In this document: positions 58,455 through 60,484 of the stretch, in pieces
How the letters are laid out: each line of letters opens with the position of its first letter
Numbering within the stretch: the first letter of the stretch is position 1
From: Lentisphaeraceae bacterium
GTDB taxonomy: Bacteria; Verrucomicrobiota; Kiritimatiellia; RFP12; DVOR01
Reading direction: 5' to 3'
DNA length: 64,000 nt
Assembly (NCBI GenBank): GCA_004555175.1
Contig: SFJE01000002.1
Location: forward strand, 32,333 to 96,332
Position numbers and translations under genes: made by a program
The notes under the pieces: model-generated
What the model saw: only the letters and a program-made list of their open reading frames with translations
Databases searched by the model: none
What the model was told of the DNA's origin: nothing

Positions 58455-60308
58455 TTAGAGGGAAAAGGCGGCGTCGGAGGGCATCCGCCAGTCGCCGCGG
58501 GGGGAGAGGGCGATGGTGCCGACCTTGGGGCCGTCGGGGATGGCCGAGCGCTTGAATTGCTGTTGCACGAAACGGCGGGCAAAGATGTCGAGGGTGCGGT
58601 CGATCTCCTCGGGGGAGAACTGGTCACCCAGGAGCAGGCGAGCGAGGGCTGAGAGTTCGGCGCGCGAGCAGCCGTACTTCTGGAAGTAGTAGAGGAAGAA
58701 GTCGTGGAGCTCGTATTGGCCGACGATGGCCTCGGTGTGTTGTTCGCCGGGGAGGAGCTCGGGGGAGACGGGCGTATCGCAAATGTCGCGCAAGACGGCG
58801 GCGAGGTCGGCTTCACTCTCACGGGCGACGGTCTCGACGCACCAGCGCACGAGGGTCTTGGGCACACCACAGTTGACGGCATACATGCTCATGTGGTCGC
58901 CATTATAGGTGCTCCAGCCCAGCGCGATCTCCGAGAGGTCGCCCGTGCCGACTAGGAGGCCGCCGCTCTGGTTGGCCAGGTCCATCAGCAGATAGGTGCG
59001 GGCGCGGGCCTGGGCATTCTCGTAGGTGACATCGTGGCAGGCGGGGTCGTGGCCAATATCGCGGAAGTGCTGCTCCACGCCGGGGACAATCGAGATTTCG
59101 CGCAACTCCGCACCCAGGAGTTCGGCTAGGGCACCGGCATTCGAGCGTGTCCGCTTGCTAGTCCCGAAGCCAGGCATCGTGACGGCCAGAATGGTCTTGC
59201 CAGGCAGCCCGAGTGCGCGGCACATCTGGGCGCAGACGAGGAGGGCCAAGGTGGAGTCGAGCCCGCCGGAGAGGCCAATGACCAAGCGTTTACTGTGGGT
59301 GTGGGAGAAGCGCTTGGCCAATCCAGCCACCTGAATGCGAAAGATCTCGCGGCAGCGCTCTATGCGCCGGGCATCATCGGCAGGCACAAAGGGATGGGCT
59401 TCCAACCCAGCAAGCGTGCCATCGGCTTCGCGAAGCGCCTCCGGCAGCGGACAAGTCACGCGCCGCATCGCCACGCGCGGCAGGTCGGGGAAGGAGGTCT
59501 CCCGCTGACGCACCACATCCACCCAATGGGGATTGAAGTCCATCAGGCTAATCCCCTCGCTCCACCGCGCCTCCGCTAGGACGCGCCCATTGTTCGCCAG
59601 AATGCGATGACCGCCATAGACCACATCGGTGGTCGATTCGCCCATCCCGGCGGCGGCATAGGCATAGGCGCAGGCCAGGCGCCCGGACTGCATCCGCACC
59701 AAGTCGCGCCGATAGGTAGCCTTGCCCACCGCCTCAGTACTCGCCGAAAGGTTCACAATCAGCTGCGCCCGAGCAGCGGCTAAACGGTTCGAAGGCGCGT
59801 CGACGGCCCAAAGATCCTCGCAAATCTCCACACCAAAACGCAGGTCGCCCACCGTAAACAGGAGGTCCGTGCCAAAGGGGATACCACGCCAGGTGGTCCC
59901 TTCGGGCACGGTGGTGCCGCTGACGAAGTGGCGTTTTTCGTAGAACTCGCGATAGGTGGGCAAGTGCACCTTCGGCACCAATCCCAAAAGTTGCCCTCGC
60001 TGCAACACCGCCGCGCAGTTGTAGAGGCGGTCTTCCCAACGAATGGGCAGCCCCACCACGGCCACGAGTCCCTCAGGCAAGGCCACGAGCAATTCTGCCA
60101 AGGCCGCCTCGACCTGCGCTTCGAGCGACTGCATCCCAAAGAGGTCGGCGCAGGTGTAACCCGTGAGGGAGAGTTCCGGCGCTACGGCGAGCGCGGCACC
60201 CTGCGCTGCGGCCGCCCGGAGTAGTTCCAACAAAGCCGCCGCATTCGCCTGCGGATTGGCCACTTGAACCTGCGGCGTCACCGCCGCCACGCGAACAAAA
60301 CCCTTCAT
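58455..60308 (-). CDS. nadE: glutamine-dependent NAD+ synthetase
   Basis: N-terminal nitrilase-like (CN hydrolase) domain plus a C-terminal NAD synthetase domain with the SGGLDS P-loop. Confidence 0.9.
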   Translation of the reverse strand: MKGFVRVAAVTPQVQVANPQANAAALLELLRAAAAQGAALAVAPELSLTGYTCADLFGMQSLEAQVEAALAELLVALPEGLVAVVGLPIRWEDRLYNCAAVLQRGQLLGLVPKVHLPTYREFYEKRHFVSGTTVPEGTTWRGIPFGTDLLFTVGDLRFGVEICEDLWAVDAPSNRLAAARAQLIVNLSASTEAVGKATYRRDLVRMQSGRLACAYAYAAAGMGESTTDVVYGGHRILANNGRVLAEARWSEGISLMDFNPHWVDVVRQRETSFPDLPRVAMRRVTCPLPEALREADGTLAGLEAHPFVPADDARRIERCREIFRIQVAGLAKRFSHTHSKRLVIGLSGGLDSTLALLVCAQMCRALGLPGKTILAVTMPGFGTSKRTRSNAGALAELLGAELREISIVPGVEQHFRDIGHDPACHDVTYENAQARARTYLLMDLANQSGGLLVGTGDLSEIALGWSTYNGDHMSMYAVNCGVPKTLVRWCVETVARESEADLAAVLRDICDTPVSPELLPGEQHTEAIVGQYELHDFFLYYFQKYGCSRAELSALARLLLGDQFSPEEIDRTLDIFARRFVQQQFKRSAIPDGPKVGTIALSPRGDWRMPSDAAFSL

Positions 60309-60484
60309 TTCCGATCGTCCTTCCGCTTTGCCAACAAGAGCACCATCCCCACTGCCAACGCCAAAACCGCCGTAACCCCCAACGCTATCAGCGCCCAAAA
60401 GGGCATCTCCGCCCACACAAAGAGCCCGAGAGTTGCCAGAAACAGGGTCTCCAGCCCTGCGAACGCCAACCAATACCGCTTCAT
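60305..60484 (-). CDS. small (59 aa) two-TM membrane protein, unannotated
   Basis: The ATG overlaps the ligA stop (ATGA) and the TGA overlaps the nadE ATG (ATGA). Sequence [61 protein letters not shown]3-rich codons. Confidence 0.5.

Follow-up and report, generated by a model that had tools for sequence, protein, structure and literature searches.

A conserved small open reading frame between ligA and nadE of uncultured Kiritimatiellia and its predicted two-helix membrane protein

Between the genes for an NAD+-dependent DNA ligase (ligA) and a glutamine-dependent NAD+ synthase (nadE) on contig SFJE01000002.1 of a Lentisphaeraceae bacterium (assembly GCA_004555175.1) lies a small open reading frame (ORF) of 59 codons, which is the subject of this analysis. 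The whole stretch of DNA that was analysed, 64,000 nucleotides long, is referred to as the window, and all coordinates are those of the window. The small ORF occupies 60305..60484 on the minus strand, where it reads, from 60484 to 60305, ATG AAG CGG ... CGG AAA TGA, and its 59-aa product is predicted to be a two-transmembrane helical hairpin with the invariant residues E12, L35, and G46. It is flanked by ligA (60481..62715, minus strand, 744 aa from the first ATG; NF005932, 701 bits) and nadE (58455..60308, minus strand, 617 aa; NF002730, 749 bits), and the cluster begins with a gene of protein-kinase fold with a C-terminal transmembrane helix, referred to as the pseudokinase gene (62719..63777, minus strand).

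The small ORF is joined to both neighbours by overlapping start and stop codons with a spacing of -4 nt, as read in the sequence. At the upstream junction (ATGA, 60481..60484, minus strand), its ATG (60484-60482) has the dinucleotide TG in common with the TGA stop codon of ligA (60483-60481), the end of which reads ...GAA TGA, and at the downstream junction (ATGA, 60305..60308, minus strand) its own TGA (60307-60305) has TG in common with the ATG of nadE (60308-60306). Each junction is preceded on the minus strand by a Shine-Dalgarno-like motif: GGAGG at 60492..60496, 7 nt 5' of the small-ORF ATG and within the last ligA codons, and GGAAGGA at 60318..60324, 9 nt 5' of the nadE ATG and within the part of the small ORF that encodes the basic C-terminal tail. 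The fraction of G or C at third codon positions (GC3) is 0.76 in the small ORF versus 0.79 in the neighbouring genes. A first-pass annotation, made from the sequence alone, had described a 59-aa ORF between ligA and nadE, with ATGA overlaps at both ends and GC3-rich codons, and all of these features, the identity of the two flanking genes included, were recovered upon closer reading.

A -4 nt NTGA overlap is the most frequent spacing of real co-oriented prokaryotic genes, and translation of genes that are spatially coupled in this way is often coupled as well (PMC12548453). The double overlap of the small ORF therefore marks it as an ordinary operonic gene and not as an oddity, which tempers the earlier view that two such overlaps rarely occur by chance. 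An independent and identically distributed (iid) estimate puts the chance of an open frame flanked by both overlaps, one with the ligA stop and one with the nadE start, each as ATGA, at ~0.0025, a value that is suggestive, not decisive.

Orthologous loci were compared in relatives (L011-L017 and L097-L104) with nadE identities of 92, 82, 75, 73, 68, 66, 63, and 59%. The NadE homologues form an identity ladder, the named members of which are labelled Candidatus Spyradenecus sp. and Kiritimatiellia bacterium; the genus Spyradenecus is placed under Lentisphaerota by the NCBI taxonomy and falls in the Planctomycetes-Verrucomicrobia-Chlamydiae (PVC) group either way. The order ligA, small ORF, nadE was found in all loci fetched, the small ORF being 57-62 aa long except in one locus, where it has 81 aa, and the pseudokinase gene lies 5' of ligA wherever the contig of the relative reaches that far. 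From 92% down to 59% nadE identity, the relatives with adjacent ligA and nadE all hold an orthologous small ORF that is conserved at the amino acid level, an outcome in favour of the first-pass annotation. Two of these loci call for separate mention. In L013 (3819-4004; L014 is identical), a 61-aa orthologue with ATGA at both ends sits in a 178-nt gap left uncalled by the public gene finder, a genuine annotation miss in a lower-GC relative. In L012 (3759-4004), the 81-aa orthologue is extended at its C-terminus by a non-hydrophobic stretch of ~22 residues (…QPCASASTDCEASQSVAGRKEARP), which precedes the nadE ATGA junction; the cytoplasmic tail therefore appears to tolerate lengthening.

The junctions themselves are also well preserved. 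The nadE-side ATGA overlap is present in all orthologues examined except L099, in which the small ORF ends with TAA, 15 nt ahead of the nadE ATG, while the ligA-side NTGA overlap is found in the window and in six of ten relatives' loci (L011, L012, L013, L015, L100, and L101), with spacings of -1, 0, +5, or +7 nt in L097, L099, L102, and L016. An SD-like (Shine-Dalgarno-like) GGAG or GAGG stands at a similar distance from the small-ORF start in seven of eight orthologous loci, the remaining one (L013) having GGGGGA, and a GGAG or GGAGG precedes nadE at the same position in seven of eight orthologues, being weak in L099. Start/stop overlaps at both ends are kept in most lineages, in line with the translational coupling proposed in the first-pass annotation.

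An open frame by itself is weak evidence for a small ORF, and its occurrence by chance in a GC-rich, non-coding ligA-nadE spacer had to be considered. The GC content of the window is 63.5%, 37.5% of all 59-codon segments over the six frames are free of stops, and along the 180 nt of the small ORF three of the remaining five frames are likewise open. The window moreover contains long antisense shadow ORFs, such as one of 684 aa (55980-58034, plus strand) opposite a GH2 beta-galactosidase-type gene with F5/8 type C domains (1258 aa, 54234-58010, minus strand) downstream of the operon, and open frames are consequently uninformative in such GC-rich DNA. The comparative data contradict a chance origin, however, and make it very improbable. 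The coding frame (+1) is the only one that is stop-free in all nine lineages, remaining open in the low-GC relatives L013 and L015, in which other frames have up to 6 stops. The small protein is 26-71% identical where NadE is 59-92% identical, and conservation at the protein level persists while nucleotide identity falls to 39-50%; the profile built from the family reaches E-values of 1e-22 against 1.84 billion proteins.

Within the clade to which it is restricted, the small ORF is conserved along with its overlaps and is under purifying selection. Using an in-house Nei-Gojobori script, with the proportions of nonsynonymous (pN) and synonymous (pS) differences compared by Fisher test, the ratio of nonsynonymous to synonymous rates (dN/dS) was 0.27 against L011 (pN < pS, p = 1.7e-4) and 0.44 against L012 (pN < pS, p = 0.0068). 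Within-species variants (L001-L010) differ by synonymous changes only; having been picked for an identical protein, they were not counted as independent evidence. Across genomes, the small ORF keeps pace with ligA and nadE in GC3, from 0.44 to 0.84, and T at the second codon position amounts to 0.37-0.57 versus 0.26-0.29 in the neighbours; such a high value maintained across varied base composition is the signature of a hydrophobic protein. Even distant orthologues, with 31-35 replacements in residues 5-52, show only 0-2 changes to charged or polar residues.

In a 29-member alignment, E12, L35, and G46 are invariant, M1, F22, and L49 are almost so, and position 30 is often occupied by a Trp. 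Across 11 loci compared at the DNA level, the invariant glutamate is encoded by GAA seven times and GAG four times, the glycine by GGG five times, GGC five times, and GGT once, and the codon preceding E12 varies freely (CTG, CTA, ATT, TGT, GTA, GTG, and CTT). Synonymous codons at E and G, together with the free preceding codon, indicate that the constraint is on the amino acid and not on a nucleotide motif. The notion that the conserved 'LE' pair serves as a GGAG Shine-Dalgarno sequence for an internal start was rejected on the same grounds, the preceding codon being variable and E being GAA in 7 of 11 loci; in addition, the window holds no start codon in the dozen bases after 'LE'.

These data also bear on the possibility that the spacer is translated merely to carry ribosomes from ligA to nadE and to keep the nadE start accessible, the peptide being a functionless hydrophobic by-product. 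Some short ORFs are known to supply the gene downstream of them with ribosomes (PMC12548453), nothing at the locus is preserved more consistently than the start/stop overlaps and SD-like motifs on either side, and the peptide evolves fast over the identity range given above. A mere relay would not, however, hold E12, L35, and G46 invariant amid synonymous codon turnover, nor would it maintain two hydrophobic helices of transmembrane length across a GC3 range of 0.44-0.84, a pN below pS, or a length near 57-62 aa; moreover, direct coupling of ligA to nadE would need no spacer of 180 nt. A relay with a functionless product is accordingly judged improbable.

The position of the spacer directly 5' of an NAD+ biosynthesis gene would likewise suit a structured RNA that controls nadE, such as an attenuator or a riboswitch responding to NAD+, and in which the ORF is incidental. 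The evidence leaves scarcely any room for such an element: no Rfam match at E <= 1 was obtained in 58000-64000, the folding energies do not stand out from those of shuffled controls (z = +0.42 over 261 nt; +0.22 and -0.40 at the junctions), and it is the protein profile that is conserved while the nucleotide sequence is poorly so. Nor did RNA folding reveal an unusually stable structure occluding the start of the small ORF or of nadE. The only Rfam hit elsewhere in the window is a transfer-messenger RNA gene (31486-31841, minus strand; RF00023, 160.6 bits) with the tag peptide ANDNFAYAA.

Structurally, the small protein is predicted to consist of little more than its two helices. Kyte-Doolittle profiles and column-wise hydropathy revealed two hydrophobic segments, at about residues 5-24 and 29-52, in all 16 members scanned, and two hydrophobic helices followed by a basic tail were present in all nine orthologues examined at the DNA level. 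AlphaFold2, run with the 16-sequence alignment, returned a helical hairpin with helices at residues 2-25 and 29-58 and a mean predicted local distance difference test (pLDDT) score of 86.6. The hydropathy profile and the model thus agree with the two hydrophobic helices described in the first-pass annotation. Both the N-terminus (MKR) and the C-terminal tail (KRKDDRK) are basic, whereas the turn (residues 25-29, AEMPF) is not. According to the positive-inside rule, basic segments of membrane proteins are cytoplasmic, and both termini are therefore predicted to face the cytoplasm; this N-in/C-in hairpin topology is considered likely. The strongly conserved positions are all intramembrane, with E12 in helix 1 accompanied by F22, L35, G46, and L49, while the cytoplasmic ends vary except for their charge.

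Several family assignments were tried and rejected. Rv2743c/PspM, DUF6343, Phage_holin_3_6, and an LPXTG anchor, all from Pfam, scored 14-15 bits at best versus cut-offs of 20-28, and each of these weak families was matched by only 4-7 of the 16 sequences scanned, in every case at E > 0.005. TIGR01167, also an LPXTG model, exceeded its cut-off (18.1 versus 15.9), but covers only the hydrophobic-plus-basic tail, and no LPXTG motif is present. The small size and hydrophobicity of the protein, with its weak, sub-threshold Phage_holin_3_6 matches (E 0.05-0.2), might recall a small membrane toxin or a holin-like peptide, such as a type I toxin or phage holin. Yet all these matches lie under the gathering score and have the generic look of one transmembrane segment aligned to another, no match was found in PHROGs (best E 0.21) or PADLOC, and the gene resides in a vertically inherited operon with the housekeeping-type genes ligA and nadE, not in a prophage or beside an antisense RNA. 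A toxin or holin is thus hardly to be expected here.

The small ORF had been described as unannotated, which holds for the ORF track supplied at the time; public assemblies, however, already call it, and NCBI lists relatives as 'hypothetical protein'. Gene calls for exactly this 59-aa protein exist in 71 blocks of a public assembly collection, including pig-gut and other metagenomes and two NCBI metagenome-assembled genomes (MAGs), with the same neighbours wherever the contig extends to them. A single-sequence, word-indexed search recovered two relatives only (93% and 97% identity), and an alignment-based search 15 proteins, three of them named 'hypothetical protein' by NCBI. When 1.84 billion cluster representatives were searched exhaustively with a profile, 20 proteins scored at E <= 1e-3. 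These 20 are all 55-81 aa long and match end to end as standalone proteins without fusions, with E-values down to 1e-22. Twelve of them were outside the profile (E 1.6e-12 to 3e-5), and the two whose context was fetched, P0143 and P0147, lie between ligA and nadE, so that the family is confirmed independently. Ten further members that were looked up all derive from metagenomes or MAGs, the only name among them being 'hypothetical protein [Kiritimatiellia bacterium]'. The small ORF is thus already in the databases as a hypothetical protein, yet in no described family.

Outside this group of bacteria, neither the protein nor its setting was encountered. A genome scan with a NadE alignment gave one Kiritimatiellia locus, L017, among the matches listed, and the other 79 served as an outgroup; these 79 nadE loci, among the matches listed, come from other phyla, with Victivallaceae and Akkermansia represented (46-54% identity), and have neither ligA nor a pseudokinase gene within 4 kb. 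In L118/L119 (nadE 58% identical), nadE heads its own unit and is not adjacent to ligA, and the small-protein profile found nothing convincing in six-frame translations of 94 outgroup loci. A metagenome scan with a pseudokinase alignment yielded three close relatives only, both of those with enough flanking DNA carrying the whole cluster, and pseudokinase relatives at >= 46% (at least 46%) identity carry the whole cluster wherever the contig is long enough. Judged by these sequences, the small protein appears restricted to one clade of uncultured gut Kiritimatiellia / Ca. Spyradenecus bacteria. The same distribution speaks against a mobile short repeat inserted at the nadE start codon with its own coupled ORF. 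Mycobacterial interspersed repetitive units (MIRUs) do behave in this way, their insertion at a start codon giving rise to a short ORF coupled at -4 nt (PMC12548453). Here, however, no second or partial copy exists in the 64-kb window, the profile comes up empty in the outgroup translations just mentioned, all 20 cluster representatives are standalone, and all inspected loci have the ORF at the same ligA-nadE position, which renders a MIRU-like origin exceedingly improbable.

The remaining genes of the cluster were also characterized. LigA comprises adenylation, OB, Zn-finger, and BRCT domains, and its start in public calls is mostly set to give 738 aa, once 744 aa. At 738-744 aa, and up to 779 aa in relatives of the clade, it is long compared with model lengths of 652-664 for a typical LigA; its HHH region gives a weak Pfam match only (PF12826, E 8e-4), a sign that the stretch from the Zn finger to the BRCT domain may have diverged or may carry an insertion. 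NadE contains CN_hydrolase and NAD_synthase domains. The first gene had been termed kinase-like; the fold stands, and the assignment can be refined to a conserved, membrane-anchored pseudokinase. Three catalytic residues are missing, namely the beta3 Lys, the HRD Asp, and the catalytic-loop Asn, which is the reason for calling it a pseudokinase. In all eight orthologues, HLVYGGL(R/K/S)P replaces the HRDLKPxN of Hanks kinases, the beta3 lysine is absent, and DFS, DLS, DPT, or DPA replaces DFG, while the APE and alphaF regions and the C-terminal transmembrane helix are kept. It matches the generic Ser/Thr-kinase defence models PD-T4-6 (E 4e-31) without their catalytic residues.

The pseudokinase gene always abuts or overlaps ligA, and the four genes abut or overlap one another in every lineage examined. 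A match to a sigma-70-like promoter (63776..63803, minus strand) immediately precedes the pseudokinase gene, and a terminator-like hairpin followed by a T-run lies ~300 nt 3' of the nadE stop (58145..58160, minus strand), both being consensus matches only. The presence of ligA and nadE in one translationally coupled operon appears specific to the Kiritimatiellia/Spyradenecus clade when set against the 79 outgroup loci among the matches listed and against L118. Elsewhere in the window, a 92-nt tRNA-Leu(CAG) gene (39776-39867, plus strand) falls within a 578-aa ORF on the other strand (39319-41055), which is for this reason probably a shadow ORF, at least over the tRNA stretch.

Taken together, the small ORF is interpreted as a real, translationally coupled gene for a two-helix membrane protein, with a probability of roughly 0.75; that it is a genuine gene which is translated at all is considered very probable. 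Briefly, it would form the third cistron of a four-gene operon comprising the membrane pseudokinase, ligA, the small protein, and nadE. Its translation would proceed by termination-reinitiation at the ligA stop, aided by the ATGA and the upstream GGAGG, and its own termination would pass ribosomes on to nadE through the second ATGA and the upstream GGAAGGA. Such a ribosome relay through the small ORF would thereby tie NadE synthesis to LigA synthesis, and a functional link between the NAD+-consuming LigA and the NAD+-making NadE may fit their strictly conserved adjacency in the clade. The product would be a 59-aa inner-membrane hairpin that exposes a short loop (about residues 25-29) to the outside and keeps its two termini cytoplasmic. 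As the strongly conserved residues are all in the bilayer, the peptide most likely acts inside the membrane, and a glutamate that stays both invariant and buried in such a tiny protein suggests either a specific polar contact with the helix of a partner or self-association. The small protein may thus be an accessory or regulatory subunit whose buried glutamate binds a larger membrane protein or mediates self-association, although an intramembrane accessory role exerted through E12 is an evenly poised proposal.

The pseudokinase, as the only other membrane protein of the operon, is the first candidate partner. Its transmembrane helix, however, has no invariant, charged, or conserved polar residue that could pair with E12, and it is for this reason considered an unlikely one. 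The more far-reaching idea that the small protein is a clade-specific invention, born in the ligA-nadE spacer and recruited as the intramembrane partner of the pseudokinase in a membrane module that senses or regulates some factor bearing on NAD+ supply and NAD+-dependent DNA ligation, is a long shot. If true, it would represent a datable de novo birth of a functional membrane protein inside a housekeeping-type operon.

Several further observations, like the lack of a pairing residue in the pseudokinase helix, weigh against this interpretation or parts of it. The small protein is 71% identical to its L011 orthologue versus 92-94% for the neighbours, and its dN/dS is three to four times higher than the 0.07-0.08 of the neighbouring genes; such fast evolution implies that the constraint is modest and largely compositional, that is, on hydrophobicity. 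The conservation of the basic tail may partly reflect the embedded nadE Shine-Dalgarno motif and not protein function. The LPXTG match described above aside, searches with the small protein in Pfam, NCBIfam, PHROGs, and PADLOC gave sub-threshold, generic-transmembrane-like matches only, and a Foldseek comparison of the AlphaFold model with the PDB gave generic helical hairpins (ribosomal and oligosaccharyltransferase (OST) proteins; best E 3.5), both results being uninformative. Finally, the cluster is always inherited whole, and phylogenetic profiles therefore cannot single out a partner.

The importance of the finding lies in a length cut-off having hidden a real small membrane-protein gene, under selection and strictly linked to ligA and nadE, in PVC bacteria of the animal gut that are uncultured and poorly studied. 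Knowledge of its function might explain why a membrane pseudokinase, an NAD+-consuming ligase, and an NAD+ synthase are joined in one coupled operon in this clade only. The small ORF opens no long-standing question, and it offers a clean test case for the calling of small ORFs by comparative genomics.

In its arrangement, the small ORF resembles the coupled genes with a -4 nt NTGA spacing: ATGA occurs at both ends, SD-like motifs lie in the upstream gene, and the spacing variants are -4, -1, 0, or a few nt (PMC12548453). Nothing is unusual in this comparison except that a very short cistron is coupled on both sides and would thus link the translation of ligA and nadE.

Two well-known families share individual features with the predicted protein. 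The c-subunit of F/V-type ATPases carries its carboxylate in the C-terminal helix and a GxGxGxG motif in the N-terminal helix, has a cytoplasmic polar loop, and is encoded in the atp operon. The likeness consists of a two-helix membrane hairpin, one invariant buried carboxylate, and a conserved glycine. The small protein was nevertheless rejected as a c-subunit: its carboxylate, E12, belongs to helix 1, a Gly repeat is absent, and its gene stands beside ligA and nadE, outside any atp context; its termini, not its loop, are predicted by charge to be cytoplasmic. Small multidrug resistance (SMR) transporters such as EmrE have four helices, ~105-120 aa, and an essential Glu14 in the first transmembrane helix, and the small protein is alike in having an invariant glutamate ~12-14 residues from the N-terminus within its first transmembrane helix. 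With 59 aa and two helices, it was not accepted as an SMR protein either; the sole SMR match, to NF033470 (E 0.015, 15.8 bits versus a cut-off of 225), aligns to model positions 63-109, corresponding to transmembrane helices 3-4 and not to helix 1.

The closest analogy is offered by AcrZ, KdpF, CydX, MgtS, and MgrB, bacterial small membrane proteins that serve as accessory or regulatory subunits of larger membrane proteins. Proteins of the AcrZ type are mostly single-helix, shorter than 50 aa, and encoded in operons with their membrane partner. No sequence similarity of the small protein to any of these five was detected in the Pfam and NCBIfam searches, and it differs from them in being a two-helix hairpin of 55-69 aa encoded between two soluble enzymes. 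What it has in common with them is to be very short, almost entirely transmembrane, and operon-encoded, such genes often overlapping the start or stop of a neighbour, as well as to conserve hydrophobicity and a few intramembrane residues and to belong to a class of genes often missed by length cut-offs.

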